DNA of 64,000 nt from an uncultured Acidobacteriota bacterium (GTDB lineage: Bacteria; Acidobacteriota; Vicinamibacteria; Vicinamibacterales; CAVVIG01): positions 308,600-372,599 of the forward strand of contig CAVVPE010000003.1 in the NCBI GenBank assembly GCA_963750035.1. The letters are read 5' to 3'. Each line of letters opens with the position of its first letter. Position 1 is the first letter of the stretch. Of this stretch, positions 716 to 62,181 are shown in pieces. The translations under genes and the position numbers were made by a program. The notes below the pieces were generated by a model. It was not told where the DNA came from and did not search any database. It worked only from the letters and a program-made list of their open reading frames with translations.

Positions 716-810
716 GACTCGGGGCTCGGGACTGGGGACTCGGGCTCGGCCCTTAGGCCTGCCTCGAAGCTTTTCGAGCCCCGAGCGCCCGAGCCCCGAA
801 TCCCGAAACG
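716..810. repeat. tandem-word hairpin (words CTCGGGG/ACTGGGG with reverse complement), likely terminator of the 816-1076 gene
   Basis: Left arm 716-749 gactcggggctcgggactggggactcgggctcgg. Right arm 779-810 ccccgagcgcccgagccccgaatcccga. Inner palindrome ctcgaagcttttcgag. Confidence 0.8.
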
Positions 811-5116: not shown

Positions 5117-5149
5117 AAATTTACAATTGTAAATTTACAATTGTGAATT
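5117..5149. repeat. AT-rich palindromic tandem repeat between convergent pfkA and thrC
   Basis: aaatttacaattgt x2. 5117-5136 is a perfect 20-nt palindrome, AAATTTACAATTGTAAATTT. Confidence 0.85.
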
Positions 5150-6925: not shown

Positions 6926-6955
6926 CGTCGCAGCTCCGAACCTCGTCGAATTCTT

Positions 6956-6986
6956 CGAACTCTCCAACTCTCGAACTCTCCAACTC
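6956..6986. repeat. single-arm tandem word repeat (CGAACTCTCCAACTC x2) between pyrH and frr
   Basis: Same word family as the right arm of the 8657-8750 hairpin. I found no inverted partner nearby. Confidence 0.8.
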
Positions 6987-8649: not shown

Positions 8650-8656
8650 GGTCGAC

Positions 8657-8750
8657 ATTGGAGAGTTGGTGAGTTGGAGAGTCGGTGAGTCTGAGCGGGA
8701 TGCTGGGGAGCTGGTCGAATTCACCAACTCTCCAACTCACCAACTCGCCA
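8657..8750. repeat. tandem-word hairpin (GTTGGAGA/GTTGGTGA) between rpsB and tsf
   Basis: Left arm 8657-8690 attggagagttggtgagttggagagtcggtgagt. Right arm 8718-8750 attcaccaactctccaactcaccaactcgccag. Confidence 0.85.
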
Positions 8751-8765
8751 GATTCGAGTCGGCGT

Positions 8766-27055: not shown

Positions 27056-27136
27056 GGAGGAGGGGCCGGACGGGCAGGAGGGGCGGGAATGGCAGGAAGG
27101 GGAGAGCACGCAGCCCCACCCGCCCTTCCTGCCCTG
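27056..27136. repeat. tandem-word hairpin (GGGCAGGNA words) between pyrG and kdsA
   Basis: Left arm gggcaggaggggcgggaatggcaggaagggg. Right arm ccccacccgcccttcctgccc. Same word family as 54651-54710. Confidence 0.8.
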
Positions 27137-30141: not shown

Positions 30142-30221
30142 TTGTAATTAGGAATTAGGGATTAGGAATTTGGAATTCGGACCCGCATTCCTAATTCCAA
30201 ATTCCAAATTCCTAATTACAA
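30142..30221. repeat. AT-rich tandem-word hairpin, GGAATTA/GGAATTT family
   Basis: Left arm ttgtaattaggaattagggattaggaatttggaat. Right arm ttcctaattccaaattccaaattcctaattacaa. Loop about 11 nt. Confidence 0.9.
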
Positions 30222-30228
30222 AAACTCA

Positions 30229-31137
30229 GTGATCACCCTCATCATCAACCCGATCTCCGGCAACGCGCACTGGGGCGAGATTGCCGACCGCGTGGATGTT
30301 GCCCGGACAGCGTTAGCTGGCAGCGGCGAAGAGTCGCGCGTCGTCGTCTCGGAACGGCGTGGACATGTGCGCGAGCTGGCCATGGCAGCCGCGCATTCCG
30401 GCTCGAGGCTGGTGATGGTCTGGGGTGGGGATGGCTCGATGAACGAGGCCGGGGCGGCGCTCCTCGGGACCGATGTGCCGCTGGGTGTGATTCCGGCCGG
30501 CTCGGGTAACGGTCTCGCCCGCGAGCTCGGCATTCCGATGCAGCCTGCCGCTGCAATCGCGGCGGCGTTGAAAGGCAGGCCGCGCGTGATCGACGGCGGA
30601 GAATTGGGCGGCCGCCCATTCTTCAATATCGCGGGCGTCGGCTTTGATGCTCACATCGCGGCATGCTTCGATCGCGCACCACGCCGTGGCCTGGCCACCT
30701 ACGTGCGGGTGTCAGCGCGGGAGCTGCTGACCTATCGATCGATGAACTATCGGATCGATTGCAGCGAGGCTGCCGGCGGCATTTCAGGCGATGCTCAAAG
30801 CGTCGCCCTTCCGCACCGCCGCGCCCTCCTCGTGACGATCGCCAACTCCCCGCAGTTCGGCAACGGCGCCCGAATCACACCGTTCGCGCGCGTTGACGAC
30901 GGGCGGCTCGACCTGGTCGTCTACGAGGAGGTCTCCCGCTTTTCGACAATCTGCGCGCTGCCGAAACTCTTTACCGGAGGCATCGAGCGGGTGCGTGGTT
31001 TCACGACACGGCAGATAGAGCGGGCACGGATCGAGAGCGATGTGCCGATGACCTTTCACGTCGACGGCGAACCGGTCGAGGGCGGCACGGCGCTCGAGGT
31101 CAGAGTCCTGCCTAAAGCCTTGAGGGTGATCGCGTAA
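30229..31137 (+). CDS. diacylglycerol/lipid kinase family protein (YegS-like)
   Basis: Intact 302 aa. VMVWGGDGSMNEA, LGVIPAGSGNGLAREL, and the DAGK catalytic domain pattern. Confidence 0.85.
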   Translation: MITLIINPISGNAHWGEIADRVDVARTALAGSGEESRVVVSERRGHVRELAMAAAHSGSRLVMVWGGDGSMNEAGAALLGTDVPLGVIPAGSGNGLARELGIPMQPAAAIAAALKGRPRVIDGGELGGRPFFNIAGVGFDAHIAACFDRAPRRGLATYVRVSARELLTYRSMNYRIDCSEAAGGISGDAQSVALPHRRALLVTIANSPQFGNGARITPFARVDDGRLDLVVYEEVSRFSTICALPKLFTGGIERVRGFTTRQIERARIESDVPMTFHVDGEPVEGGTALEVRVLPKALRVIA

Positions 31138-31222
31138 TTTGGAATTAGGAATTAGGAATTTGGAATGCGTGTTGGAATTGGCGCGCGAATTCCAAATTCC
31201 TCATTCCAAATTCCTAATTTCA
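31135..31222. repeat. AT-rich tandem-word hairpin, GGAATTA/GGAATTT family, between convergent genes
   Basis: Left arm taatttggaattaggaattaggaatttggaatg. Right arm cgaattccaaattcctcattccaaattcctaatttca. Confidence 0.9.
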
Positions 31223-31231
31223 TGATCTCTG

Positions 31232-34852: not shown

Positions 34853-34915
34853 GAGGACGCAGAGGATTAGAGGACGCAGAGGCGCAGAGCGCAGAGGCGC
34901 AGAGCGCAGAGGCTG
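34853..34915. repeat. single-arm GCAGAGG/GCAGAGC tandem repeat between icd and mdh
   Basis: gaggacgcagagg attagaggacgcagagg cgcagagcgcagaggcgcagagcgcagaggc. No inverted partner. Related words occur at 7726 and 46769. Confidence 0.85.
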
Positions 34916-36810: not shown

Positions 36811-36819
36811 GCCGTGTGC

Positions 36820-36876
36820 GCCGGGCCTGAGAGGCCCGGCCTACAGGAACGCGTAGGGCGGACCTCTTAGGTCCGA
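36820..36876. terminator. two GC stem-loops between the convergent cupin gene and sdhB
   Basis: GCCGGGCC-TGAGA-GGCCCGGC (36820-36840) and CGGACC-TCTTA-GGTCCG (36859-36875). Confidence 0.55.
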
Positions 36877-36914
36877 CGCTAATACTCGTCGTACCCTTCT
36901 GCCTGAAGCCCCCA

Positions 36915-37664
36915 CTACTTTGCGGCCGTGAACATGCCCTTGACGTACTCGCGCGTCATCCGGGCGATGTTCGAGATCGGGATCTCCTTCGGGCAGACCG
37001 CTTCGCACTCGCCCTCGTTCGAGCAGCTGCCGAAGCCGTCCGCATCGGCCTGGTGGATCATGGCGGCGACACGCCGGTAACGCTCCACCTGGCCCTGCGG
37101 CAGCAGCGACAGGTGCGAAATCTTGGCGCTCATGAACAAGTGCGCCGAAGCGTTCTTGCACGCCGCCACGCACGCCCCGCAGCCGATGCAGGCCGCCGAG
37201 TCCATCGCGGTTTCGACGATCTCCTTGGCGATCGGGATCGCGTTGCCGTCGGGCGCGCCGCCGCAGTTGATCGAGATATACCCGCCGGCGGCGATGATGC
37301 GATCGAACGCACTGCGGTCGACCGTGAGGTCCTTGATGACCGGAAACGCCTTGGCGCGCCAGGGTTCGATGGTGATCGTGTCGCCGTCCTTGAAGCGACG
37401 CATGTGCAGCTGACAGACGGTCGTGCCGCGGTCGGGCCCGTGCGGGATGCCGTCGACGACCAGGCTGCACATCCCGCAGATGCCCTCGCGGCAGTCCGAA
37501 TCGAAGGCAATCGCATCCTGTCCCTTGCGGATCAGCCCTTCGTTGACCACGTCGAGCATCTCGAGAAACGACATGTCAGGCGAGACATCGTCGGCGACGT
37601 AGTCTTCGAGTCGACCCGCCGCGGTCGGTCCCGCCTGACGCCAGATTCGGAGTTTGAGTCGCAT
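36915..37664 (-). CDS. sdhB: succinate dehydrogenase/fumarate reductase iron-sulfur subunit
   Basis: Intact 249 aa. [36 protein letters not shown] cluster motifs. Confidence 0.92.
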
Positions 37665-37669: not shown

Positions 37670-37752
37670 GTAGGCCCGACCTTCAGGTCGGGCGTGCCGA
37701 CGTCCCGCCGATCGTCTCCGAAGCCGTCGCCCGAGCTGAAGCTCGGGCCTAC
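37670..37752. repeat. double stem-loop spacer between sdhA and sdhB, bounded by GTAGGCCCGA / TCGGGCCTAC
   Basis: GCCCGACC-TTCA-GGTCGGGC (37674-37693). GCCCGAGC-TGAA-GCTCGGGC (37729-37748). Confidence 0.7.
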
Positions 37753-40410: not shown

Positions 40411-41571
<1,161 letters not shown>

Positions 41572-41581
41572 AACCAAGCAC

Positions 41582-41636
41582 GGAAACACGAAACACGAAA
41601 CCAGACAAGCAATTCTTTTCGTGGTTTCGTGCTTCC
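41582..41636. repeat. tandem-word hairpin (AACACGA words) between sucC and sucD
   Basis: ggaaacacgaaacacgaaacca ... tggtttcgtgcttcc. The perfect 10-bp core pairs 41594-41603 with 41622-41631. Confidence 0.85.
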
Positions 41637-41652
41637 GGCATGCTTTGACGAT

Positions 41653-42524
41653 ATGGCCGTCCTAATCGATAAGTCGACACGATTGCTGGTCCAGGGCCTG
41701 ACTGGACGGGAAGGCACGTTCCACGCGCGGCAGGCGGCGATCTACGGCACGACGGTCGTCGGCGGTGTCACGCCGGGCAAGGGCGGCACCACCCACGAAG
41801 GCTGGCCGATCTTCGACACGGTCCACGACGCGATCGAGAAGACCGGCGCCAACGCCTCGGTGATTTTCGTGCCGCCTCCCTTCGCGGCCGACGCGATCAT
41901 GGAGGCCGCCGATGCGGGACTGGCGCTCGTCGTGTGCATCACCGAGGGGATTCCCGGTACTCGACATGATGCGGGCGATGACCTTCCTCAAGGAGCATCC
42001 GCAGACGCGTCTCGTCGGACCGAACTGCCCCGGCATCATCACGGCCGGCCAGGCCAAGGCGGGCATCATCCCGGGACATATCTGCAAGGAAGGGCGGATC
42101 GGGATCGTGTCGAAGAGCGGCACGCTCACCTACGAGGCGATCCACCAGCTGACGCGCCTCGGCCTCGGCCAGACGACCTGCATCGGCATCGGCGGCGACC
42201 CGCTGATTGGCACGACCCACATCGACGCGCTCGCCCTGTTCGCGCAGGACCCCGACACCGACGCGGTGATCATGATTGGCGAAATCGGCGGCAGCGCCGA
42301 GGAAGAGGCCGCCGCCTGGATTCAGGGGCACTTCAAGAAGCCGGTCGTGGCCTTCATCGCCGGCCAGACCGCACCGCCAGGACGCCGCATGGGCCATGCC
42401 GGCGCGATCATCGCCGGCGGGAAGGGGACAGCCGCCGAGAAGATGCGTGCGCTGGACGGCCGCCGGCGTGAAGGTGGTCAGGAGTCCCGCCGATATGGGT
42501 GGTGCGGTCAGAGAACTGCTATAA
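41653..42524 (+). CDS. sucD: succinyl-CoA synthetase alpha subunit, apparent frameshifts (extra C in the run at 41953-41955, second near 42450)
   Basis: [62 protein letters not shown]. Confidence 0.92.
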
Positions 42525-42525
42525 T
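42517..42525 (+). promoter_or_regulatory. extended -10 like TGCTATAAT overlapping the sucD stop, 48 nt upstream of korA
   Basis: Same 9-mer as at 46334 and 58510. Confidence 0.3.
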
Positions 42526-42573
42526 TCCGGGGATCCACTCCTCCTTTCTCAATAGCCTGTAAGGACTTAACGA

Positions 42574-44464
42574 ATGTCACCGAGTGATCTAGCGGTTCAG
42601 GAGCAGAGGGCTGCGTCGGGCCAGCAGCGGGTCGTCAACGATTTCAGCATCCAGGTCGCCACCGTCAATGGCTCGGGCAGCCAGACGGCCAACCTCGTGC
42701 TCCTCCGTTCGATTCTCCTGATGGGCGTTCCCGTGTCCGGCAAGAACATGTTCCCTTCCAACATCGCCGGGCTGCCCACCTGGTACACGATTCGGGCCAG
42801 CAAGCGCGGCTACATCGCCCGGAAGAAGGAAGTCGACTTCCTCGTCGCGATGAACGCCGAGACGGCGAAGGAAGACGTGCTGACGCTGGATGCGGGCGCC
42901 GCCGTCGTCTACGACGAGCCGCTGAAGCTCAACACGCTCCGCAGCGACCTGGTGTTCTACCCGGTCCCGTTCGACAAGCTGGTCGCCCCGGTCTGTCCCG
43001 ACGCGAAGCTGCGGCGGCTCGTCCGCAACATGATCTACGACGGCATCCTCGCCAAGATCCTCGGCATCGACCTGAAGCTGATGGAACAGGCGCTCGGCAA
43101 GCAGCTGGGGCGCAAGGCCAAGGCTGTCACGCTCAACCAGGGCGCGCTCAAGGCCGGCTATGACTATGCGGAGGCGACCTTCACGAAGCAGGACCCATTC
43201 GTCATCGAGCCGATGAACGAAACGGCCGGCAAGATTCTCATCGAGGGAAATGCCGCGGCGGCGATCGGCTGCATGATGGCGGGCGTCACCGTCGTCGCCT
43301 GGTATCCGATCACGCCCTCGTCGTCGCTCTGCGAGTCGCTCATCGGCTACATGAAGCGATACCGGATGGACAAGGCGACCGGGAAGGCCACGTTCGCGAT
43401 CGTGCAGGCCGAGGACGAGATCGCGTCGCTCGGCATGGTGATCGGCGCGGGCTGGGCGGGCGCGCGCGCGATGACCGCGACGGCCGGGCCCGGGCATCTC
43501 GCTGATGTCCGAGTTCACCGGTCTCGCGTACTACGCGGAAACTCCCGCGGTCATCTTCGACGTCCAGCGGGTCGGCCCGTCGACCGGCCTCCCGACGCGG
43601 ACCGCGCAGGGCGACCTGCTGTTCACGGCCTTCCTGTCGCACGGCGACACGAAGCACGTCATGATCATTCCCTCGTCGGTCGAGGAATGCTACGAGATGG
43701 CGCAGCAGGCGTTCGAACTCACCGAGCTGCTCCAGACGCCGGTGTTCGTGATGATGGATCTCGACCTGGGGATGAACAACTGGATGTCCGACGGGTTCAA
43801 GTATCCCGAGAAGCCGATTAACCGCGGCAAGCTGCTCACCAAGGAGGTGCTGGCGCGGCTCGGCGAGTGGGGACGCTACAAGGACGTCGACGGCGACGGC
43901 ATTCCGTACCGCACGGTGCCGGGCGACGGCATGCCCGCCTACTTCACCAGGGGCTCGGGTCACAACGCGAAGGGACAGTACAGCGAGCGGCCCGACGACT
44001 ACGTCGAGAACATGGATCGCCTGTCGCGCAAGTTCGAAACCGCGCGCGCCTACGTGCCCAAGCCGGTCATCGACCAGACGGCCGGCGCGAAGATCGGGCT
44101 GATTGGCTATGGCACCTCGCACTGGGCGATCACGGAGAGCCGCGATCAGCTGCGCGAGGAGACCGACGTCAAGACGTCATACTTCCGGCTCCGCGCGTAT
44201 CCGTTCACCGAAGAGCTCGCCGCCTTCATCGACGCGCACGAGCGCGTCTACGTGGTCGAACAGAACCGCGACGCGCAGCTCCTGCAATTGATGCGCCTCG
44301 AGCTCAACCCCGAGCGTCTCACGAAGCTGCGCAGCGTCCTCCACTACAACGGCCTCCCGATCGACGCGCGGAGCATCACGGACGACGTGCTGGCGCAGGA
44401 AGGCTTCGAGGTGGCGAAGAAGACGGTGGCGAAGGTGAGTGCCGGATCAGCGGGCGGCGAATAA
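42574..44464 (+). CDS. korA: 2-oxoacid:ferredoxin oxidoreductase alpha subunit (gamma-alpha fusion type), one apparent frameshift near 43495
   Basis: FSIQVATVNGSGSQTANLVL (gamma-like), GNAAAAIGCMMAGVTVVAWYPITPSS, AEDEIASLGMVIGAGWAGARAMTATAGPG, VFDVQRVGPSTGLPT. Confidence 0.85.
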
Positions 44465-44468
44465 CGGC

Positions 44469-44505
44469 ACAATTTCAAATTGTAAATTTACAATCTGTAA
44501 ATTGA
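44469..44505. repeat. AT-rich palindromic word repeat between korA and korB (AAATTTA/CAATTGT family)
   Basis: acaatttcaaattgtaaatttacaatctgtaaattga. Palindromes are ACAATTTcAAATTGT and TTGTAAATTTACAA. Same family as 5117-5149. Confidence 0.85.
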
Positions 44506-44519
44506 TCTAACGACATCAA

Positions 44520-45548
44520 ATGGCCACACCAATCAAAGTCAATCGCATCGGGCTGGAACCACAGGTCTACAAGGGCGGCAAGACGACGCTGTGCGCGGGC
44601 TGCGGGCACAACGCCATCTCGGAGCGCATCATCGATGCGTTCTACGAGATGGGCGTCAATCCCAGCCAGGTCGTCAAGCTGTCGGGTATCGGCTGCTCGA
44701 GCAAGAGCCCGGCGTACTTCCTGGGCGGATCGCACGGCTTCAACGCCGTCCACGGCCGCATGCCCTCGGTCGGCACCGGGGCGATGCTGGCCAACGGCAA
44801 GCTGATTGCGATCGGCGTGAGCGGCGACGGCGACACGGGCGCGATCGGCATCGGCCAGTTCGTCCACCTGATGCGCCGCAACCTGCCGATCATTTACATC
44901 ATCGAGGACAACGGCTGCTACGGCCTGACGAAAGGGCAGTTCTCGCCGACGGCCGACCTCGGATCGAAGCTGAAGAGCGGCGTCGTCAACGAGCTGCCGC
45001 CGATCGACACCTGCGCCCTGGCGGTCGAGCTGGGCGCGACGTTCGTGGCGCGGTCGTTCTCGGGCGACAAGAAACAGCTGCTGGCGCTGCTCAAGGCGGC
45101 GCTCGCGCACCGCGGCACCGTGATGCTCGACGTCATCTCGCCGTGCGTCACGTTCAACGACCACGAAGGATCGACCAAGAGCTACGCGTACGCGAAGGAC
45201 CACGACGACCCGCTCGAGGAGGTCAGCTTCGTACCGTTCTTCGAGGAGATCTCGGTGGATTACGAGCCTGGCTCGACGCAGGAAGTGACGATGCACGACG
45301 GCTCGAAGCTGTATCTGAAGAAGCTGGAGGAAGGCTACGATCCGACCGACAAGATCTCGGCGCTGAAGCGCCTGCACGAGACCGCGCGCCGCGGCGAGTT
45401 CGCCACGGGCCTGATCTACATCGAGCCCGATCGCGACGACTTCCTCACGCAGCTGAACATTGTCGACGAACCGCTGGCCAGCCTGCCGCTCGAGCGAACG
45501 CGGCCAGGGCGAGAGGCGCTCGAGGAGATCATGGAGAGCCTGCGATAA
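44520..45548 (+). CDS. korB: 2-oxoacid:ferredoxin oxidoreductase beta subunit (TPP-binding)
   Basis: Intact 342 aa. CAGCGHNAI, SGIGCSSK, GVSGDGDTGAIG, DNGCYGLTKGQ. Confidence 0.9.
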   Translation: MATPIKVNRIGLEPQVYKGGKTTLCAGCGHNAISERIIDAFYEMGVNPSQVVKLSGIGCSSKSPAYFLGGSHGFNAVHGRMPSVGTGAMLANGKLIAIGVSGDGDTGAIGIGQFVHLMRRNLPIIYIIEDNGCYGLTKGQFSPTADLGSKLKSGVVNELPPIDTCALAVELGATFVARSFSGDKKQLLALLKAALAHRGTVMLDVISPCVTFNDHEGSTKSYAYAKDHDDPLEEVSFVPFFEEISVDYEPGSTQEVTMHDGSKLYLKKLEEGYDPTDKISALKRLHETARRGEFATGLIYIEPDRDDFLTQLNIVDEPLASLPLERTRPGREALEEIMESLR

Positions 45549-45583
45549 CTTGCAGATTGCATATTGCAGATTGCGGATTTACG
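45549..45583. repeat. left arm of a split inverted repeat (TTGCAGA/TTGCATA heptamer words)
   Basis: cttgcagattgcatattgcagattgcggattt. The reverse-complement partner is at 46007-46040. Confidence 0.75.
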
Positions 45584-45631
45584 AAGCGTTTCTCTCGAGT
45601 TCGACACCGACCCTGGCGATTCTGGGCGTCT

Positions 45632-45962
45632 TCACGAGGCGGTCAGAATCGCCAGCAGTTCTCTTGACTCGCCGAGCAGGTAGTCCAGCTCGCTCCCGCA
45701 TAGCCGCCGCGACGGATAAACACCAACCAGAAGACGGTTTCGTCGGATTCCTCGTGCGCAGTTGCAAGCTTTGCCGTGAAGTCTCGGTGTGATTGCCCCC
45801 GGCAGGCGCGGCGGTAATTCGAAGCCATGCCCGTCTACTTCGAAACAGTTGGTCTGCGACGTGTTGGGATTGGCGATCGGCTGCAAGGCCGCGCAGAACT
45901 TCGCACGTGCGGAGGGCGAAGGTGAGGGTGCGTTCCTGCAGGTCCTCAGCCCGCGGATTCAT
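45632..45962 (-). CDS. four-helix-bundle protein (23S rRNA intervening-sequence protein family), frameshifted
   Basis: Pieces in three frames: AEDLQERTLTFALRTCEVLRGL..VADQLFRS / ..NYRRACRGQSHRDFTAKLATAHEESDETVFWLVF / ..ELDYLLGESRELLAILTAS*. They match the family pattern DQLLRSxTSIGANyrEA..arS..dF..Kl.i...E..ET.yWL. Confidence 0.7.
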
Positions 45963-46006
45963 GGCGTGAGTTCGAGCATGACTCACGCCAGTGCAAATTC
46001 CTCAGT

Positions 46007-46040
46007 AAATCAGCAATTTGCAATCTGCAGTTTCCAATTC
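46007..46040. repeat. right arm of the split inverted repeat flanking the four-helix-bundle gene
   Basis: aaatcagcaatttgcaatctgcagtttccaattc. Its reverse complement ..ctgcagattgcaaattgctgattt aligns with 45550-45581. Confidence 0.7.
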
Positions 46041-46077
46041 TCAGCCCCGCATCTCGCGCGGACGCGGCAGATTCTGC

Positions 46078-46272
46078 CTACCCCCCTTCGCTTTCATCCT
46101 CATTTGCACCGATCTGGTCCTCTGCGGTCGCGATCGGATCGTCCGGCAGCCCATCCTCGTTGACGCCCGGACCGTGGGGGTTGCCCATCTGCTTGTCGGT
46201 GGGACGGTCGCCCTCGATGGCGCCCTTCTGTGCGTCCTGATCGTCCTGCTGCTTCGTCGCCATCGTCGTCAC
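46078..46272 (-). CDS. hypothetical small acidic protein
   Basis: Intact 64-aa ORF, MTTMATKQQDDQDAQKGAIEGDRPTDKQMGNPHGPGVNEDGLPDDPIATAEDQIGANEDESEGG. No family assignment. Confidence 0.35.
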   Translation of the reverse strand: MTTMATKQQDDQDAQKGAIEGDRPTDKQMGNPHGPGVNEDGLPDDPIATAEDQIGANEDESEGG

Positions 46273-46333
46273 GTTGCGCCTCCAGTGAAGGTGCTTGGCG
46301 TCGTTCCCGCCGCGCAGTGGTTGAGTTAGCCGC

Positions 46334-46342
46334 TGCTATAAT
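46334..46342 (+). promoter_or_regulatory. TGCTATAAT extended -10 element 6 nt upstream of the ndk ATG (leaderless-type arrangement)
   Basis: gcTGcTATAATcgctcgATG. There is no room for a Shine-Dalgarno sequence. Confidence 0.4.
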
Positions 46343-46348
46343 CGCTCG

Positions 46349-46767
46349 ATGACCGAGCGGACCCTCGCGATTATCAAACCCGATGCCGTCCAGCGACGGC
46401 TGGCGGGGCGGATCATTCAACGCATCGAAGAAGAAGGATTCCAGATCCGTGCCATGCGGCGCGTGCACCTCTCCAAGCCGGAAGCCGAGGGTTTCTACGC
46501 GGTCCATCGGCAGCGCCCGTTTTTCGGCAGCCTGACCGGGTTCATGTCGTCGGGGCCCGCGGTCGTGATGGTGCTGGAGGCTCCCGACGCGATCAAGAAG
46601 TGGCGGACCCTGATGGGGGCCACGGATCCTGCGAAGGCGGATGCCGGCACGCTGCGGAAGGAATTTGCCGAATCGATCGAACGCAACGCGACGCACGGCT
46701 CCGATGCTGCCAGAGACGGCGGCGTACGAGATTGGCTATTTCTTCGCCGGGCGTCGAACTGATCTGA
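46349..46767 (+). CDS. ndk: nucleoside diphosphate kinase, apparent frameshifts near the 3' end
   Basis: [44 protein letters not shown] (active-site His), then [14 protein letters not shown] in a second frame. Confidence 0.9.
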
Positions 46768-46768
46768 C

Positions 46769-46811
46769 GAGGACGCAGAGGGGAGCAGAGCGCCGCAAAG
46801 CCGCAGAGGAG
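46769..46811. repeat. single-arm GCAGAGG-family word repeat between ndk and the DUF2905 gene
   Basis: gaggacgcagaggggagcagagcgccgcaaagccgcagaggag. Related to 34853-34915. Confidence 0.7.
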
Positions 46812-46816
46812 CCACT

Positions 46817-47011
46817 TTGGGTAAGCTGCTGCTGATCGTCGGCCTCGTCATCAGCGGGATCGGCCTGCTCGTCATGCTCGGCGTGCCATTCGGCCGGCTC
46901 CCCGGAGACTTCGCGGTCAAGCGCGGCAACTTCGCCTTCTACTTTCCGCTCACCACGTCGATCATTTTGAGTATTCTGCTGACGCTGATCTTCGCGCTTT
47001 TCAGACGCTAA
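46817..47011 (+). CDS. DUF2905-family small membrane protein
   Basis: Intact 64 aa. [34 protein letters not shown] is the family signature as I recall it. Confidence 0.7.
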
Positions 47012-47024
47012 GACGCCTGACGCA

Positions 47025-47118
47025 GGTCGTTCGACGTTCGCGCGTTCGGCGTTCGAACGGCGGCCGTGCAGCCGACGAACGCCGAACGATCGGCGAAGAT
47101 CCACGAACGACGAACGAC
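47025..47118. repeat. tandem-word hairpin (CGNCGTT words) between the DUF2905 gene and dcd
   Basis: Left arm ggtcgttcgacgttcgcgcgttcggcgttcg. Right arm cgacgaacgccgaacg...ccacgaacgacgaacgac. Confidence 0.85.
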
Positions 47119-47136
47119 ACTGACGGAGACCCGACC

Positions 47137-47691
47137 GTGACGATTAAGAATGACCGCTGGATCAAGCGAATGGCCCTCGAGCACCAGATGATCGAACCGT
47201 TTGTCGACAGCCAGACCCGCACCGGGGTCGTGTCGTACGGGGTCTCGTCGTACGGCTACGACATCCGCGTCGCCGACGACTTCAAGGTCTTCACCAACGT
47301 CTACAACACCGTCGTGGATCCGAAGTGCTTCGACCCGAAGTCGTTCGTCGACATCAAGGCCGACGTCTGCATCATCCCCCCGAACTCCTTTGCGCTGGCC
47401 CGGACCATCGAGTACTTCCGGATTCCGCGCGACGTCCTGACCGTCTGCCTCGGCAAGTCGACGTATGCGCGCTGCGGCATCATCGTCAACGTCACCCCGT
47501 TCGAGCCCGAGTGGGAAGGCCACGTCACCATCGAGATCTCGAACACGACGCCGCTGCCGGCGAAGATTTACGCCAACGAAGGGATCGCGCAGGTTCTGTT
47601 CTTCCAGAGCGACGAGCCGTGTGAGGTGTCTTACCGCGACAAGAAGGGCAAATATCAGGCGCAGCGCGGCGTGACGCTGCCGAAAATTTAG
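47137..47691 (+). CDS. dcd: dCTP deaminase
   Basis: Intact 184 aa. [49 protein letters not shown]. Confidence 0.93.
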
Positions 47692-47783
47692 TGCGAAGTT
47701 CGGATTTGACCCCTAAAGCTCAGACGTAGTAAAACTTGCGGCGGCTTCGGGTAATCCGGCGCCCTTCCAGAATCCCTGGGTAC

Positions 47784-48734
47784 ATGGACAAACTCGTCGA
47801 GCGCGAAAACGCGCCTCGGAATCCACTCGCCGCCGCGCCCGCTCTCGCCGTTCAATTCTTTTTGATCCCGCTGGTTGTTGTCGGCGTGACAGTGCTCGTC
47901 TACGTGGGCTTCAGGTCCATGCTCGCGGACGAGCGCAGCCCGGCAGAGTATCTCGCCGAGGTGCGGTACGGTGGCTGGAGCCGCCAGTGGCCTGCGGCGT
48001 TCGAGCTGTCGCGCTTGATGGAAGACCCGCAGGTGCGGGCCGACCGCTCGCTGGTCCCGGCGCTCGTCAAGGCGTTCGACGAGGCCAAAGACGGCGACCC
48101 GCGGATCCGGCGTTATCTCGCCCTCGCCATCGGGCGGCTCGAACCGCCTCTCCCCAGGGAGGCCATCGACGTCCTGACCAAGGCCCTCGACGAACCAGGC
48201 ACGGCGTGGACGCCCGACATCGTCTCGCGCCTCAACGGGTGGGCCGACATCGACATCAACGAAGCCAGGATCATGACGATCTGGGCGCTGGGTTCGTCGG
48301 GCGACGCCTCCGTCGTGGCCAAGCTCGTGCCGTTGTACGAGTCGAAGGACGCGGGCATCCGGAAGATGGTCGTGTACGCGCTTGGCGCTCTGCCCGGGGA
48401 GGCGCAGCTGCCGACGCTGACGACCGCGCTCAAGGACGAAGCCGCCGACGTGCGATGGAATGCCGCTGTTGCGCTGGCACGACACGACAGCGCGGAGGGC
48501 GTCCCCGTGCTGCGCGAGATGCTCGATCGCGCGTTCGTCGAGCAGACGGTCAAGCGGGATGTGCGGCAGTACGAGGATCAGGACCCCGTGGCGGACGTCA
48601 TGATCAGCGGCCTCCGCGCCGCTGCCGCCCTCAACGACCCGACGCTCAAGGCATCGGTCGAAGGATTGAGCCAGCAGGACCGCAGCCTGCGCGTGCGGCA
48701 GGCCGCGCTCCAAGCGCTCAAGACGATGGGATAG
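47784..48734 (+). CDS. HEAT-repeat membrane-anchored protein
   Basis: N-terminal TM segment FFLIPLVVVGVTVLVYVGF. Repeats include DPRIRRYLALAIGRL, DAGIRKMVVYALGAL, DVRWNAAVALARHDSAEGVPVLREML, SLRVRQAALQAL. Confidence 0.65.
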   Translation: MDKLVERENAPRNPLAAAPALAVQFFLIPLVVVGVTVLVYVGFRSMLADERSPAEYLAEVRYGGWSRQWPAAFELSRLMEDPQVRADRSLVPALVKAFDEAKDGDPRIRRYLALAIGRLEPPLPREAIDVLTKALDEPGTAWTPDIVSRLNGWADIDINEARIMTIWALGSSGDASVVAKLVPLYESKDAGIRKMVVYALGALPGEAQLPTLTTALKDEAADVRWNAAVALARHDSAEGVPVLREMLDRAFVEQTVKRDVRQYEDQDPVADVMISGLRAAAALNDPTLKASVEGLSQQDRSLRVRQAALQALKTMG

Positions 48735-48745
48735 GAGAAAGGTAT

Positions 48746-48903
48746 CGTTCACGCTTCTCGGTTCACACTTCTCGGTTCGTGTTCAAGTTCGGGTTCGTGA
48801 CGGAGTGCGTTGCATCGGGAACGGTGAACATTGAAACTGAACCATGAATGTCGAACCGAACCTGAACACGAACGGAGCACCGAGAACCGAGAAGGGTGAA
48901 CTG
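48746..48903. repeat. large tandem-word hairpin (about 50-nt arms, 14-nt words GTTCACNCTTCTCG) upstream of the Rieske gene
   Basis: Left arm cgttcacgcttctcggttcacacttctcggttcgtgttcaagttcgggttcg. Right arm cgaaccgaacctgaacacgaacggagcaccgagaaccgagaagggtgaactg. Confidence 0.9.
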
Positions 48904-48916
48904 CAGGTGACAGAGC

Positions 48917-49752
48917 ATGGCTGACGAGAAGACGCCGGAAACCCCGGCGCCCAAGATTGCGCCTCAAACCGGCGAGGCAACGGCAGCGGCGGCAAAGACC
49001 GGCTCGCCGGCGGCGGGGCCAACGGCCAGCGCACCGGCTACCGGAGCAAACCCGGCGGCGACCCCGCATGCCGCGACGACGCCTGCCGCACGGCCCGCAC
49101 CGGCGCCCCGTGCGCCAGCCGCACCGCTTCCCGATCTCGCGGGGAAGACGACGACGCCCGCTTCAGCAGGCGGAGCGGCGGCTAAGGCGGCCACGACGGC
49201 CGCCAAGCCGGCCGCGGCCGCAGCCACGCGGGATCCAGACGATACCTCGCCGCTCCTGACGCGTCGCGCCTGGATGGGCGTCGCCTGGGGCGCGTTTTCG
49301 GCGGCTTCCGCCGCCGCGCTGGCGGCAACCGGCCGCTTCATGTTCCCGAACGTCCTGAACGAGCCGCCGCAGCAGTTCAAGGCAGGGTTACCCGTCCGAG
49401 TACGGGATGGGCGTGGACGAGCGGTGGAAGGAGAAGTTCGGCGTCTGGATCGTTCGAACGCCGAACGATGTCGTGCAGCGCTCGAACGGGTTCTTCGCGC
49501 TGCTCGTGACCTGCACCCACCTGGGCTGCACGCCCGAACTACCTGAGCGCCGAAGGGAAGTTCAAGTGCCCGTGCCACGGCAGCGGCTTCCGGGCGGAGA
49601 GCGGCATCAACTTCGAGGGTCCGGCGCCGCGGCCGCTCGAGCGCGCCCGCATCGTGCTGGCCGACGACGGCCAGCTCCTGATCGACAAGGCGCGCAAGTT
49701 CCAATACGAGCTGGGGCAGTGGGCAGACCCCGAGGCATTTCTGAAGATTTGA
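48917..49752 (+). CDS. Rieske 2Fe-2S subunit of a cytochrome bc-type complex, apparent frameshifts, start uncertain
   Basis: Tat-like LLTRRAWMGVAWGAF. CTHLGC and CPCHGS cluster-binding boxes. The first ~115 aa are Ala/Pro-rich low complexity. Confidence 0.8.
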
Positions 49753-49775
49753 GATTTGAGGATCTTGAGATCCTA
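49747..49775. repeat. ATTTGAG word repeat with a short palindrome between the Rieske and cytochrome b genes
   Basis: atttgag atttgag gatcttgagatcct. Confidence 0.6.
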
Positions 49776-49797
49776 GCAAATTTTTCACAAGAGAGCC

Positions 49798-50614
49798 ATG
49801 GCTGAGACCAAGACGATCAATCCGCAGGAGAGTGCGCCCCGTCCGGTTCTGGAACTGGCTGACCGAGACGCAGATCTGGACCTCGGTCTTCCGGCACGGG
49901 CGGCCGAACAGCGACCGCAACCGCGTGCTGGTGATGCTGTCGAACGTGTTCCTGCACCTGCACCCGGTGCGCATCCGCAAGTCGGGCGTGAAGCTTCGCT
50001 ACACCTGGTGCATGGGCGGGCTGAGCTTCTTCCTGTTCCTGTCGCTCACGTTCACCGGCCTGCTCCTGATGTTCTATTACCGGCCGACGCTCGAGTACGC
50101 CTACACCGACATCGTGGCGCTGCGCGAGCACGTCCCGCTGGGCATCATGCGCGAGATGCACCGCTGGGGCGCCCACGCGATGGTCATCACCGTGTGGCTG
50201 CACATGTTCCGGGTGTTCATGACCGGCTCCTACAAGCCGCCGCGCGAGTTCAACTGGTCGGTCGGCGTGATCATGCTGGTGCTGACGCTGCTGCTGTCCT
50301 TCACCGGCTATCTGCTGCCATGGGACCAGTTGGCTATCTGGGCCATCACGGTCGGCTCCAACATGGCGCGCGCCACGCCGTTCCTCGGGCACGAAGGCCC
50401 GGGCGCCGCGCTGCTGCGGCTCGGCGACGTGCCGCTGATTCACGCCTACGACGACGCGCGGTTTGCCCTGCTGGGCGGATCGTTCGTCGGCGAGGGCGCG
50501 CTGCTGCGATTCTACGTGCTGCACTGCGTGGGCCTGCCGCTCGGCATCGCCGTGCTGATGGCCGTCCACTTCTGGCGCGTCCGGAAGGACGGGGGGATTT
50601 CCGGGCCACTGTAA
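49798..50614 (+). CDS. cytochrome b, N-terminal (b6-like) subunit, possible frameshift near the start
   Basis: [57 protein letters not shown]. The four haem-ligand His are in two helices. Confidence 0.85.
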
Positions 50615-50702
50615 TTTGGAATTTGGAATGAGGAATGCGTAGGAATGCGCACGGTGAATTTGGTTACGAATTCCAAATTCCAAATTCCAAATTCCTAATT
50701 AC
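50611..50702. repeat. AT-rich tandem-word hairpin, GGAATTT family, between the two cytochrome b halves
   Basis: Left arm gtaatttggaatttggaatgaggaatgcgtaggaatg. Right arm cgaattccaaattccaaattccaaattcctaattac. Confidence 0.9.
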
Positions 50703-50716
50703 GAGGATCAGCTGAG

Positions 50717-51794
50717 ATGGGCGTGATCAAGGGTTTCTTCAATACGCTGGCCGACCCGCGGCTGTTTTTCCTTCTGGCCTGCGCCGCGCTGGTCCTGATG
50801 GTCTGGAAGCGCGACAAGATCGCGTCGAACACGGTCGGGTACGGGCTGCTCGGCCTCCTGGGCGTGTTCTTCCTCTTCGGCGCTTTCGATCCGAATTTCC
50901 GGCTGATCATCGCGAAGCCCGACAACGTGCCGATCGTCGGGCTGATCTTCCTGCTGATCTTCTTCACCTGGTACTCGATCCGCGAGGCGGTGCTGAACGA
51001 TCGGCGGATCGTGGCCGGTCAGGGGCCGATCGAGAAAGCCGAGTCGGATCGCGTCTGGGTGTGGCCCGATCTCGTCTATACCGAGCTCATCTCACTGATT
51101 CTGTGCTCGGTGGTGCTGATCGTCTGGTCGATCGTCCTGAAGGCGCCGCTCGAGCAGCCCGCGAACCGCGTCGGTCACCCCGAATCCGTCGAAGGCGCCG
51201 TGGTACTTCCTCGGGCTGCAGGAAATGCTGGTGTACTTCGACCCGTGGCTCGCCGGCGTCGTGCTGCCCGGCTTGATCATCGTCGGCCTGATCGCCATCC
51301 CGTACATCGATCGCAACCCGAAGGGCAACGGCTACTACACCTTCACCGAGCGCAAGGCAGAGATCACGCTCTTCCTCTTCGGCTTCGTCATCCTGTGGTC
51401 GTCGCTCATCGTCCTGGGCACGTTCCTTCGCGGGCCGAACTGGAACTTCTTCGGGCCGTTCGAGTTCTGGGATCTCCACAAGCTCGAGGCGCTGGTCAAC
51501 GTGAACCTGTCGGAGTACATCTGGATGCGGCTCTTCCAGACCGGGCTGCCCGGCAACTGGTTCGTGCGGGAGATCTTCGGCATTCTGCTCGTGCTCGCCT
51601 ACGTGTTCGTGCTGCCGGTCGTCCTCGGCCGCACGGTATTCCGCTCCTACTACGAGAAGATGGGCGGCCCGCGGTTCTACATCGGCGCGTTCCTGTTCCT
51701 GATGATGATGTCGCTGCCGATCAAGATGCTGCTCCGGTGGATTGTCAACCTGAAGTACATCGTGGCGATTCCTGAATTCTTCTTCAACATCTAA
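50717..51794 (+). CDS. cytochrome b C-terminal (subunit IV-like) subunit with extra TM helices, one apparent frameshift near 51170
   Basis: ..PSKAPWYFLGLQEMLVYFDPWLAGVVLPGLIIVGLIAIPYIDRNP in a second frame. The remainder is polytopic. Confidence 0.8.
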
Positions 51795-54650: not shown

Positions 54651-54710
54651 GCAGGGCAGGTAGGGCAGGAAGGGCAGGTAGGGCCTCCCGCCTTACCTGC
54701 CCTACCCGCC
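54651..54710. repeat. tandem-word hairpin (GGGCAGGNA words) after the cytochrome c gene
   Basis: gcagggcaggtagggcaggaagggcaggtaggg ... cttacctgccctacccgcc. Confidence 0.85.
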
Positions 54711-54713
54711 CGG

Positions 54714-54719
54714 TATAAT
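54714..54719 (+). promoter_or_regulatory. TATAAT box 9 nt upstream of the 54729 ATG (near-leaderless arrangement)
   Basis: cggTATAATtcaccccgaATG. Confidence 0.35.
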
Positions 54720-55244: not shown

Positions 55245-55271
55245 GGCTGCGTAAGTTCGCGGCGGTCGTGG

Positions 55272-55291
55272 GGCGACCCTCTAGGGTCGCC
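55272..55291 (+). other. 8-bp GC stem-loop abutting the hisS start codon
   Basis: GGCGACCC-TCTA-GGGTCGCC, immediately followed by ATG at 55292. Confidence 0.5.
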
Positions 55292-56627
55292 ATGATCAAG
55301 TCATCCACAAAGCCGCCATCCGGAACACGCGATTTTCTTCCCGACGACGTCCGCCGGCGCGAGCACGTCATCGGGATCGTCCGCGGTGTGTACGAACGCT
55401 ATGGGTTCGAGCCGCTCGAGACGCCGGCGTTCGAGAACATCGAGACGCTGCTCGGCAAGTACGGCGAGGAAGGCAACAAGCTGATTTTCAAGATCCTGCG
55501 CCGCGGCGAGCACGAGCAGAGCGGCGAAGCGGATCTGGCGCTGCGCTACGACCTGACCGTTCCTCTCGCCCGCGTCATCGCGCAGTACCAGAACGATCTG
55601 CCGAAGTTCTTCAAGCGTTACCAGATTCAGCCCGTCTGGCGCGCCGACCGGCCGGCGCGCGGACGCTTCCGCGAGTTCTATCAGTGCGACATCGACTCGA
55701 TCGGCTCGACCGCTCCGGTCGCCGAAGTCGATCAGCTGGCGGCGGTGTCGGATGTGCTCCTGCAGCTCGGATTCGCCGATTTCGTCGTGCGCCTGAACCA
55801 CCGCGGTGTCCTGTCCGGACTGTTGAATGCAGCGGGCGTTGCCAGCGCCCACCACGCCGACGCGTTAGTGGCGTTGGACAAATTGGACAAGATTGGCCCG
55901 GAGGGAGTCGCACGGGAGTTCAGCGCGCGAGGAATTCCCCAGGCCATCGCCGAACGCTGTCTCGAACGGTTCGCAGTGCCGGCGACGGAGCTGCCGGCGG
56001 ACACCGTGCGACGTCTCGAGGAAACGCTCGGCAAGGACGATGGCGCTGTTGCAAATCTGCGCGAGATTACGTCCCTGGCGGCGGCGACATCCGCTGGAAA
56101 CAGGATCCGCATCGACCTGAACCTTGCGCGCGGGCTGTCATACTACACGGGCGCCATCATGGAGATCGTCGTTCCCGACCTCGCCGGCAGTCTCGGCGGC
56201 GGCGGCAGGTACGACAATCTCGTGGGGATGTTCCTGGGGCGCGACGTGCCGGCCTGCGGCTTCTCCCTCGGCCTCGAGCGGATCATCGTCGTGATGACCG
56301 AGCGGAGCATGTTTCCGGAGAATGTCGTGCGCGGTACGGTCGACGTGATGGTCACGCTGTGGAACGATGCGTCGCGCGCTGACGCGCTGGCGCTCGCCAG
56401 CGAACTGCGCGCAGCGCGGCCTTCGCGTCGATGTGTATCCGGAGGCCGACAAGCTCGGGAAGCAGTTCAAGTACGCGTCCAGCCGCAACGTGCCGTTCGT
56501 GGCGATCGTCGGCGACGACGAGCGGGCGCAGGGAAAAGTGTCGATCAAGGATCTCCGGAGCGGCGATCAGCAGACGGTCGATCGCCGCGAGGCGGGGCGG
56601 CACGTAGCGACAAGGCGGCGATCGTGA
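55292..56627 (+). CDS. hisS: histidyl-tRNA synthetase, one apparent frameshift near 56415
   Basis: [65 protein letters not shown]. The anticodon-binding domain is in a second frame. Confidence 0.92.
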
Positions 56628-58431: not shown

Positions 58432-58507
58432 GAGGCTGGGGGCTGGAGGCTAGTGACGTGGGATACGCGACGACTCCCAGGCCTCCAGTCCCCAGTCTCT
58501 AGTCCCC
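58432..58507. repeat. tandem-word hairpin (GGCTGGG/GGCTGGA words) after aspS
   Basis: gaggctgggggctggaggctagtgac ... gactcccaggcctccagtccccagtctctagtcccc. Confidence 0.85.
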
Positions 58508-58509: not shown

Positions 58510-58518
58510 TGCTATAAT
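58510..58518 (+). promoter_or_regulatory. TGCTATAAT extended -10 like element upstream of phoH
   Basis: ctgTGcTATAATgcg, followed by AAGGAG at 58542. Confidence 0.35.
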
Positions 58519-62147: not shown

Positions 62148-62151
<4 letters not shown>

Positions 62152-62181
62152 TTTGGAATTTGGAATCAAGAATTAGGAATG
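62148..62181. repeat. single-arm GGAATTT-family word repeat running into the recO start codon
   Basis: gtaatttggaatttggaatcaagaattaggaATG. No inverted partner. Confidence 0.8.

Follow-up and report, generated by a model that had tools for sequence, protein, structure and literature searches.

Dispersed tandem-word hairpins behind stop codons at operon junctions of an uncultured acidobacterium, and their turnover among relatives

REP elements often lie within operons just past stop codons, where they are co-transcribed and stabilise the upstream mRNA. MITE-type elements, such as Correia of Neisseria and ERIC of enterobacteria, are small non-autonomous inverted repeats that also sit in operons and are co-transcribed; they have defined terminal inverted repeats and target-site duplications, and their hairpins are cut by RNase III or alter mRNA half-life. 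A further kind of repeat, made of heptamers that pair with one another, has been noted in cyanobacteria since 1990 as well as in Geobacter and Xanthomonas, and its origin and function are unexplained. Here we describe hairpins of this kind, formed by two inverted arrays of short tandem words, in a stretch of 64,000 nucleotides of an uncultured acidobacterium (contig CAVVPE010000003.1, positions 308,600 to 372,599; hereafter the window). On balance we lean towards reading them as dispersed elements, similar to STRR and REP repeats, that occupy the transcribed spacer behind stop codons, would loop out of the mRNA and are tolerated by their operons but not required.

The cyanobacterial STRR are 7-bp tandem repeats that can form hairpins, for example between hupS and hupL, the genes for the uptake hydrogenase subunits; their function is unexplained, with roles in transcript stability or translational coupling suggested for them (PMC2670836). 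The paired sites of Geobacter metallireducens (classes 1-3, GTTGCTYN x4, TCTCCGTS x3 and MTYCTGA x5) were read as binding sites of an IHF/HU-type global regulator, with no comparative or RNA analysis (PMC2700814). In Xanthomonas and Nostoc, the G-rich heptamer repeats GGGAATC and GGGGAYT have been studied for their ability to form G-quadruplexes; they are transcribed, and their length and sequence vary among close species (PMC4692102). In rRNA intervening sequences (IVS) the stems are cut by RNase III without re-ligation, and forms with and without an open reading frame (ORF) coexist. The ORFs reported in them belong to two families, PF05635 and GIY-YIG, and the former is homologous to Avd, the accessory protein of diversity-generating retroelements, according to a published paper.

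The original prediction for the window held that word hairpins separate the genes of obligate complexes at six junctions and are unlikely to be plain terminators. An inverted-repeat search found inverted repeats at all six, and Pfam, applied to concatenated coding fragments that had been called by codon statistics, bears out the flanking genes: rpsB/tsf, pyrG/kdsA, sdhA/sdhB, sucC/sucD, korA (POR/POR_N) with korB (TPP_enzyme_C), and the N-terminal half of cytochrome b (PF00033, cytbN) with its C-terminal half (PF00032, cytbC). The elements are as follows; coordinates of short features may be off by one base in this indel-rich assembly.

41576..41634, plus strand: word hairpin between sucC and sucD, of GAAACAC heptamers, with the 3' arm GGTTTCGTGCTTCC
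44469..44505, plus strand: short AT-rich word hairpin between korA and korB, AAATTGT/ACAATTT, word family common to 5117-5149
50610..50703, plus strand: word hairpin of the AATTTGG family between cytbN and cytbC
8652..8757, minus strand: word hairpin between rpsB and tsf, of TTGGAGAG/TTGGTGAG octamers
37670..37752, minus strand: REPIN-like doublet between sdhA and sdhB, of the inverted GTAG-headed palindromes GTAGGCCCGAcCttcaGgTCGGGC and GTAGGCCCGAgCttcaGcTCGGGC
27056..27136, minus strand: G-rich 9-mer word arrays with a short inverted arm between pyrG and kdsA, adjoining the TATAAT at 27050-27055 upstream of the kdsA start

The description as word hairpins suits five of the six, whose arms consist of tandem units of 7-9 nt. 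The sdhA/sdhB element is instead a REP-like doublet, in which the GC-rich, GTAG-headed units GTAGGCCCGACCTTCAGGTCGGGC and GTAGGCCCGAGCTTCAGCTCGGGC are mutually inverted and each has a small stem of its own; the comparison with REP elements drawn in the prediction was thus apt in sequence for one of the six, and apt for all in so far as the hairpins are dispersed, family-structured extragenic repeats. Folding was scored on the sense-strand RNA against 200 dinucleotide shuffles, and four of the six fold far below their shuffles: rpsB/tsf (dG -65.6 kcal/mol, z -9.5), cytbN/cytbC (-40.5 kcal/mol, z -6.4), sucC/sucD (-28.3 kcal/mol, z -4.7) and sdhA/sdhB (-60.4 kcal/mol, z -4.0). The korA/korB fold is weak to marginal (-8.3 kcal/mol, z -2.2, equalled by 10 of the 200 shuffles), and that of pyrG/kdsA is no better than its shuffles (z -0.8, equalled by 44 of 200), although a 9-nt word array and an inverted repeat matching at 15 of 16 positions are still there. 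The elements lie close to, or reach into, the flanking codons. The sucC stop is at 41569-41571 and the sucD ATG at 41653. The cytbN stop TAA (50612-50614) is part of the GTAATT end of its element, with a GAGGA Shine-Dalgarno sequence after the stem, and the sdhA stop TAG (37751-37749) is part of the GTAG head. At rpsB/tsf, where the stop is at 8766-8768 and the tsf ATG at 8649-8647, the predicted fold pairs the tsf AUG in the outer stem, facing the rpsB stop.

Are such hairpins a fixed part of these operons? A metagenome scan with the cytochrome b N-half gave 80 soil contigs at 75-99% protein identity, whose cytochrome b DNA is 85-93.5% identical to that of the window (sequences used for comparison are labelled L followed by a number). 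At cytbN/cytbC the gap is shorter than 30 nt and lacks a hairpin in 30 of 67 relatives, and strongly folding inserts of 70-140 nt, from at least eight different word families, occupy it in 28 of 67. In L081, the closest relative at 93.5% DNA identity, the gap is 6 nt. Spacers without a hairpin measure 6-26 nt at this junction and 3-26 nt at orthologous junctions overall. The inserts fall into the following families.

AATTTGG: window, L086, L094, L099, L107, L132
ACAATTT: L092, L114
CAACTTT/GAGACTT: L088, L100
AGTACGA/TCAGACT: L085
GTGTGAA: L103
CAAAACT: L102
GAAACTT: L108
REP doublets of the GTAG type: L104, L117, L147

The same alternation is seen at Rieske/cytbN, with short gaps in 18 and hairpins in 21 of 51 relatives. 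The sucC/sucD gaps are 12 and 22 nt in the two closest relatives, and the korA/korB gaps 5-17 nt in L106, L087, L193 and L195. Because orthologous junctions have either short spacers or hairpins of different words, these operons can do without the hairpins, which turn over as species diverge. The architecture is thus common in soil Acidobacteriota, and it comes and goes at fixed operon junctions. Word arrays or hairpins also occur in other phyla, at sucC/sucD and elsewhere, in L036 (Methylomirabilota) and in L076 (Desulfohalobiaceae), the latter with four word hairpins in 21 kb, and the phenomenon is therefore phylogenetically broad; further examples are L002, L012 and L106, at sucC/sucD, and L049. 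As a separate observation, Rieske/cytbN in L112, L113, L115 and L117 is about 190-230 nt long and holds an apparent small GC-rich ORF for a hydrophobic peptide, with no hairpin.

Word families recur within one genome. The AATTTGG family is present at four unrelated junctions of the window (30142, 31128, 50610 and 62149) and twice each in L099 and L107, and its copies agree in their ends (GTAATT…AATTAC), in having about four words to an arm and in the apex GGAATGCG. Three genes, cytbN, a kinase-like gene and era, have as their stop codon the TAA within the GTAATT end. The AAATTGT family (5117 and 44469), the TTGGAGAG family (6955 and 8652) and the AGGGCAGG family (27058 and 54653) each occur twice in the window, and the GAGGATCT family at Rieske/cytbN is a remnant in the window and a full hairpin in L085, L086, L088 and L092. 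Copies of one family with the same ends and apex at unrelated junctions are therefore dispersed repeats, which have spread between sites and are not solely products of local slippage. Since the AATTTGG copies end as G/TAATT…AATTA/C, a duplicated TA is not separable from an extension of the palindrome. An arm usually has four to five words or so.

Altogether the window contains about 20 word arrays or hairpins, the hairpins being two inverted arrays of 3-5 tandem words of 7-9 nt each. The word period, determined with Tandem Repeats Finder and our own scan, is mostly 7 (16 hairpins), with 8 in 4 hairpins and 9 in 2. In a strict scan all 12 arrays of period 7-9 lay in non-coding DNA, which makes up 24% of the window, and arrays of period 6 lie within genes. 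When the junctions of the window were listed one by one, arrays turned up in at least 17 of the 38 gaps between co-directional or convergent genes, and in none of the 6 between divergent genes. Among gaps of at least 40 nt in the related contigs (604 kb), arrays are present in 41 of 180 between co-directional genes, in 1 of 10 between convergent genes and in 0 of 13 between divergent genes; for window and relatives together this makes 0 of 19 divergent gaps (Fisher p = 0.004). Besides those at the six junctions, the window has these elements.

30142..30221, plus strand: hairpin of the AATTAGG/AATTTGG family between a gene of no known function and a diacylglycerol-kinase-like (DAGK-like) gene; z -9.0
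31128..31227, unstranded: AATTTGG-family hairpin between the convergent DAGK-like gene and serA; z -4.9; the stop TAA (31135-31137) of the plus-strand gene is within its GTAATT end
62149..62180, plus strand: AATTTGG-family array with no inverted arm between era and recO; the era stop TAA (62149-62151) is in the element end
6955..6986, minus strand: AACTCTCC octamer array between pyrH and frr, word family common to the rpsB/tsf hairpin
5117..5149, unstranded: AT-rich word palindrome, AAATTTACAATTGT x2.4, between the convergent pfk and thrC-like gene
54653..54711, plus strand: word hairpin of AGGGCAGGT 9-mers after the multihaem cytochrome c gene
58432..58507, plus strand: word hairpin GAGGCTG/CCCAGTC between aspS and phoH, followed by TATAAT at 58513-58518
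48747..48901, plus strand: long word hairpin between the HEAT-repeat gene and the Rieske gene, 14-nt unit GTTCACACTTCTCG, 46-nt arms; dG -76.6
47026..47118, plus strand: word hairpin of CGTTCGA-type heptamers between the DUF2905 gene and dcd; dG -61.2
716..806, minus strand: word hairpin GACTCGG/CGAGCCC, 10 nt past the stop of a transglycosylase-associated protein gene
49745..49775, plus strand: short remnant of the GAGGATCT/GATTTGA word family between the Rieske gene and cytbN
36811..36917, unstranded: GC-rich REP-like palindromes (…CCTAC / GTAGGGCGGACC…) of the sdhA/sdhB class between convergent genes; dG -50.2
62149-62180, 34852-34913 and 25182-25204: direct arrays only, with no complementary array

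A trend towards weaker hairpins at junctions within complexes than at operon ends was looked for in the fold energies of the window, and no such trend was present. The GC-rich, GTAG-headed REP-like palindromes form a second class of repeat, often as inverted doublets (36811-36917, 37670-37752, 55245-55342 and 19274-19296). They are also found in L104, L107, L110, L117 and L147/L148, and in some relatives they occupy junctions that hold word hairpins in others.

The placement of the stems relative to the flanking codons is narrow. Over 56 non-redundant hairpin junctions of the relatives, the main stem begins a median of 1.5 nt past the stop (0-6 nt) and ends a median of 11 nt before the start (7-19 nt). 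The two distances sum to 15.5 nt, against a median gap of 12 nt at orthologous junctions with no hairpin; for this reason the insert acts like an independent module, with stop and start effectively as far apart as they are in its absence. That the stems begin so near the stop codon is largely a consequence of how little room these spacers offer. A signal was also found in the RNA folds. When stem mismatches were counted on the sense strand of 62 hairpins from co-directional gaps of the relatives, 41 were of the G.U type and 20 of the A.C type (p = 0.01), which fits a structure that matters in mRNA. Likewise, among 74 hairpins, 12 of them from the window, the sense fold is the stabler in 46 and the antisense fold in 25 (Wilcoxon p = 0.006). 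The purine-richer arm is the 5' arm in 36 of the relatives' hairpins and the 3' arm in 18 (p = 0.02). Counts of stop triplets in the word hairpins, 35 in 5' arms and 36 in 3' arms, led us to reject the notion that words of the 5' arm provide a stop in every reading frame. Shine-Dalgarno sequences are about equally frequent with a hairpin (24 of 56) and without one (21 of 55), with no linked loss or gain. No Shine-Dalgarno core follows the hairpin at sucD, korB, tsf or sdhB, and initiation of these genes by coupling to upstream termination is a possibility.

The absence of a U-tract, on which the prediction relied, was borne out: terminator-like sites coincide with none of the hairpins. Terminator consensus scans over 40 kb gave no excess (7 sites against 11.4 expected, and 10 against 9.6) and no overlap with a hairpin, and a T-rich tail, with at least 5 T in the 8 nt past the stem, is present in only 2 of 56 hairpins of the relatives. 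The hexamer TATAAT, in contrast with an expectation of 1.0, occurs exactly nine times in the window.

7715-7720, minus strand: TATAAT before the pyrH start
27050-27055, minus strand: TATAAT before the kdsA start
46337-46342, plus strand: TATAAT before the ndk start
54714-54719, plus strand: TATAAT before the LbH start, 2 nt after the hairpin at 54653..54711 and 9 nt before the ATG
58513-58518, plus strand: TATAAT before the phoH start
33316-33321 and 42520-42525, plus strand, and 3290-3295 and 58537-58542, minus strand: further TATAAT copies

The first five lie 5-9 nt before their start codons, a spacing that suggests leaderless transcripts. The copy at 42520-42525, inside the end of sucD and about 48 nt before korA, may be a separate promoter of korAB. 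Three word hairpins end 0-5 nt before a TATAAT (pyrG/kdsA, multihaem/LbH and aspS/phoH), and at multihaem/LbH a hairpin together with TATAAT is found at 7 of 7 junctions compared (window and six relatives), with differing words. These three hairpins, which abut conserved boxes, therefore probably mark operon ends, in which case pyrG/kdsA is not an intra-operon junction. On this point the context contradicts the prediction: pyrG and kdsA form no obligate complex, kdsA has its own TATAAT directly after the hairpin, and some other copies also sit where transcripts should end. Its claim that the hairpins are not plain terminators fares better elsewhere. No TATAAT-like box follows the hairpins at sucC/sucD, cytbN/cytbC, rpsB/tsf or sdhA/sdhB, which supports co-transcription there, and, as described below, gene cassettes with similar arms lie inside sucC/sucD, atpH/atpA and fadB/fadA, where read-through is unavoidable. 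Taken as a whole, the interpretation offered in the prediction is partly supported. Hairpins that hide promoters of the downstream subunit genes were considered and rejected: there is no box at the four junctions named, and korB has only weak candidates, seen by eye (TACAAT 25 nt and TAAATT 16 nt upstream).

How do these elements compare with described systems? With STRR they share tandem units of 7 bp followed by a complementary array, intergenic location that includes the spacers between subunits of obligate enzymes, and several dispersed families per genome; of the six, only the sdhA/sdhB element lacks arms of tandem ~7-nt units. The words differ, and the host is an acidobacterium of 66% GC, not a heterocyst-forming cyanobacterium as in the original definition. 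The Geobacter sites are similarly inverted pairs of 3-5 tandem units of 7-9 nt at variable distance, in tens of copies, one of them between proB and proA, and differ in words and lineage (PMC2700814). Those of Xanthomonas and Nostoc are intergenic heptamers near stops, rare between divergent genes, with about four units and some inverted pairs (PMC4692102); most words in the window, in contrast, are not G-tract sequences. The elements described here are, then, a new host lineage for a known and unexplained kind of element, for which the roles put forward in the prediction (mRNA stabilisation, RNase processing, translational coupling) had already been proposed. In the papers searched on STRR-like repeats we found neither presence/absence polymorphism at a junction nor a link to PF05635 cassettes.

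The likeness to the other systems is more partial. Like REP, BIME and REPIN elements, the hairpins are dispersed extragenic palindromes, and sdhA/sdhB even has the GTAG head and the form of an inverted doublet; a REP/REPIN palindrome is present at that junction only, whereas the word hairpins have arms of tandem units, many unrelated families and no single conserved palindrome. A RAYT (Y1 transposase) gene is absent from the 64-kb window, where no search aimed at RAYT was made. In contrast to MITEs, the arms are internally repetitive and there is no clear duplication beyond the possible TA. Intrinsic terminators share the stem-loop past the stop codon and differ in that the stems here are much longer, the loops large and the U-tract missing, with many copies inside operons with no downstream promoter. 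Finally, IVS of 23S rRNA resemble the present elements in that inverted termini form a long stem around a loop with an optional PF05635 gene, in their sporadic occurrence and in having ORF-less forms; the copies here lie between protein-coding genes and not in rRNA helices, and their termini are tandem heptamer arrays. Rfam at gathering thresholds gave a single match in the window, a tRNA (3838-3910, minus strand), and otherwise no known RNA family.

The likeness to IVS is closest where word arrays enclose a gene. In the window, such a cassette follows korB.

45550..45582, unstranded: left arm of TTGCAGA heptamers, 33 nt, starting 1 nt past the korB stop
45632..45962, minus strand: frameshifted four-helix-bundle gene of the 23S_rRNA_IVP type between the two TTGCAGA arms
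46005..46037, unstranded: right arm of TCTGCAA heptamers

The arms of this cassette (45550-46037) are 33 nt long, 82% complementary and 422 nt apart. The fragment matches PF05635 (E 6.5e-4), and the reconstructed protein matches PF05635 proteins at 77% identity. The syntenic, megabase-sized contigs L193, L195 and L196 carry an intact gene in the same position with the same word arms, here up to 35 nt long and 91% complementary. In L003 (11177-11615) an intact PF05635 gene lies between sucC and sucD within 32-nt arms of TGATTGG words; the context sucC, gene, sucD is recurrent, with one such protein indexed in 167 collection blocks. Other homologues are inserted between atpH and atpA, between a fadB-like gene and a thiolase gene, and between an oxidoreductase and a sugar kinase gene (GFO and FGGY). 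The word arms are thus also the ends of a small gene cassette in the operons of succinyl-CoA synthetase, ATP synthase and fatty-acid oxidation. In all these operons the inserted gene is co-oriented with its neighbours and flanked by ATTGGTGATTTGCGATTGGTGATTGGTGATTG … CAATCACCAATCACCAATCGCAAATCACCAAT or variants, with a GTG start in the last word and a stop 2 nt before the 3' arm.

The cassette arms are inverted heptamer arrays of 30-35 nt in the window, L003 and L161-L196, which all have the IVS layout, the solo hairpins being the stem only; inside sucC/sucD and atpH/atpA the arms are 375-420 nt apart with the gene between them. Inverted-repeat scores of the flanks were 14-32 in 10 of 11 representative PF05635 contexts, and averaged 7, with a 95th percentile of 9, around 379 other genes used as controls. 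Four of the 379 control genes (L081-L160) also score at least 14 in their flanks and may be further small cassettes. In a third PF05635 subfamily, which belongs to a polysaccharide operon, the gene is flanked on either side by direct arrays of CCATTGAA words. Word families of the cassettes recur without a gene: TTGCAAA hairpins stand solo in L116, as do TTGGTGA-type words in the rpsB/tsf hairpin of the window and in L096, L107, L122 and L193. Because PF05635 cassettes have termini drawn from at least two of the word families, the solo word hairpins are plausibly cargo-less relatives of them. Against solved structures PF05635 proteins matched only 2RLD (uncharacterised, five chains), even with a profile, and no sequence link to Avd appeared. 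None of nine papers that mention the family connects it with tandem-heptamer arrays, in a literature search that covered few subscription journals. In a separate case, a 438-nt insert at cytbN/cytbC of L145 is a gene of the GIY-YIG nuclease family (Pfam E 3.7e-16) flanked by inverted repeats of about 35 nt.

A broader proposal, which we regard as possible but doubtful, is that tandem-heptamer hairpins are the cis-acting termini of widespread IVS-like cassettes that encode a PF05635 (Avd-like) protein. In such a scheme the solo hairpins would be cargo-less, the protein would be oligomeric and would recognise its own 4-5 words, and the cassettes would colonise the spacer behind stops inside operons. 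It could extend to the cyanobacterial STRR, the Geobacter paired sites and the Xanthomonas heptamer repeats; if true, a 35-year-old class of unexplained repeats would gain an origin and a candidate binding protein. Together, the relatives and the cassettes make binding of the words by the protein, cutting of the stems by RNase III and descent of the solo hairpins from the cassettes testable.

The explanation that we favour for the hairpins themselves, those of dispersed elements tolerated behind stop codons, involves two classes of extragenic repeat, represented at the six junctions by five word hairpins and one REP doublet (sdhA/sdhB). Their families would spread to unrelated junctions, expand, contract and be quickly replaced, accumulating in what is probably the one place where a compact operon tolerates them, the short interval from a stop codon to the ribosome-binding region of the following gene. 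They would be co-transcribed with the operon, and the long stem would loop itself out, so that stop and start stay about 15 nt apart as in relatives with no insert. The elements would then be tolerated passengers and not efficient intrinsic terminators. Any effect on the RNA would most likely resemble that of REP and MITE elements: in the first place a barrier to 3' exonucleases and, as a second possibility, a double-stranded substrate for RNase III, as in the stems of 23S rRNA IVS. Such stabilisation or RNase III processing is our best mechanistic guess. Several points weigh against this explanation and its extension to cassettes. Co-transcription, looping-out and the nuclease effect are all inferred. 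The relatives, at 85-93% identity in cytochrome b DNA, are species and not strains, and turnover is 'fast' in a relative sense. Modest in size, the excess of G.U mismatches may owe something to a C-to-T bias linked to transcription, and some of the hairpins are of common descent; the hairpins of the window alone split 6 to 6 between stabler sense and antisense folds among 12. Neither a transposase nor a target-site duplication beyond the possible TA was identified for the word elements. PF05635 genes are rare, with 2 among 161 sequences (window and L001-L160) against dozens of solo hairpins, and descent of the latter from cassettes is suggested by common architecture and word families, with no traced deletion series. 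Lastly, hairpins that abut TATAAT or separate convergent genes look like terminator or 3'-end elements and could fill that role in a window where canonical terminators are not above chance.

This last point leads to the rival that the hairpins are the lineage's own U-tract-less terminators or attenuators, giving full stops at operon ends and partial ones inside operons that set the ratio of subunits. Canonical terminators no more frequent than chance, word hairpins between convergent genes (31128-31227 and 5117-5149), the three hairpins followed within 0-5 nt by the TATAAT of the next gene, in 7 of 7 cases at multihaem/LbH, and the avoidance of divergent gaps all agree with it. Yet stems of 20-45 bp with loops of 20-60 nt and a U-tract in only 2 of 56 are unlike known intrinsic terminators, and no promoter is visible between the hairpin and sucD, cytbC, tsf or sdhB. 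Moreover, orthologous junctions manage without a hairpin, so that conserved attenuation is not needed, and termination between similar arms 375-420 nt apart inside sucC/sucD and atpH/atpA would abolish expression of sucD or atpA. We consider this rival unlikely, though with a real share of the probability. Selected devices for translational coupling, in which the base of the stem sets the stop beside the start and the ribosome melts that base, unmasking the start or re-initiating, would account for stems that begin 0-6 nt past the stop and end 7-19 nt before the start, for the pairing of the tsf AUG opposite the rpsB stop and for the missing Shine-Dalgarno cores at sucD, korB, tsf and sdhB; translational coupling was also proposed for STRR hairpins (PMC2670836). 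The relatives, however, couple the same genes through spacers of 3-26 nt with no hairpin, Shine-Dalgarno frequency is the same with (24 of 56) and without (21 of 55) hairpins, and the geometry is a trivial consequence of a short spacer that receives any insert. We give this idea only a slim chance.

Local events are a slightly better candidate, improbable as they too appear: the hairpins may be by-products of replication slippage or template switching in AT-richer spacers, with no spread and no effect on expression. Heptanucleotide repeats are the commonest long simple repeats in many bacteria, for which slippage has been proposed (PMC4679880, PMC4692102), and copy number varies between arms and among relatives. 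At Rieske/cytbN the final 7 nt of the gene and the first word are identical (GATTTGA followed by GATTTGA), and the 6-nt spacer of L081, GAATTT, equals one word of the window array. Against purely local origin stand one family with the same ends and apex at unrelated junctions of a genome, the same word families bracketing a gene cassette at several operons, and the sense-strand G.U excess, which suggests some constraint on the RNA. This excess is also unexpected if the arrays are sites in duplex DNA for a nucleoid protein or global regulator, with hairpin potential incidental. Inverted tandem words do resemble operator arrays, each arm has about four words, and this is the published reading of the Geobacter metallireducens paired sites (PMC2700814), but dozens of unrelated words in one genome and no array in a divergent promoter gap make it very improbable here. 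There is next to no likelihood that the hairpins are artefacts of an error-prone assembly. The conserved genes of the window do carry dozens of frameshifts; the same architecture, however, is present at the same junctions in many independent short-read (Illumina) metagenome contigs and metagenome-assembled genomes (MAGs), which refutes this explanation.

The frame changes themselves break conserved housekeeping genes, among them sucD, korA, cytbC, icd, mdh, pil genes and era, and the window sequence is most likely an indel-rich (long-read) assembly.

41952/41960 (sucD), 43487 (korA), 51165-51202 (cytbC) and 8633-8640 (tsf): examples of frame changes
34242-34849 (icd): four frame changes

The nearest public loci are from Acidobacteriota MAGs, with the SucC of the window 77% identical to that of L001; one relative of the four-helix-bundle gene, at 59%, carries the label Vicinamibacterales. 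In practice, gene callers and predictors of operons and terminators will misread spacers that hold word hairpins. Gene order around the elements, with a double slash at each junction that holds one, is rplM-rpsI-rpsB // tsf-pyrH // frr, kdsB-pyrG // kdsA-kdsD-kdsC-lapB and sdhC-sdhA // sdhB on the minus strand. On the plus strand it is sucC // sucD-korA // korB and, further on, ndk-DUF2905 // dcd-HEAT // Rieske // cytbN // cytbC-multihaem cytochrome c // LbH-hisS-aspS // phoH….

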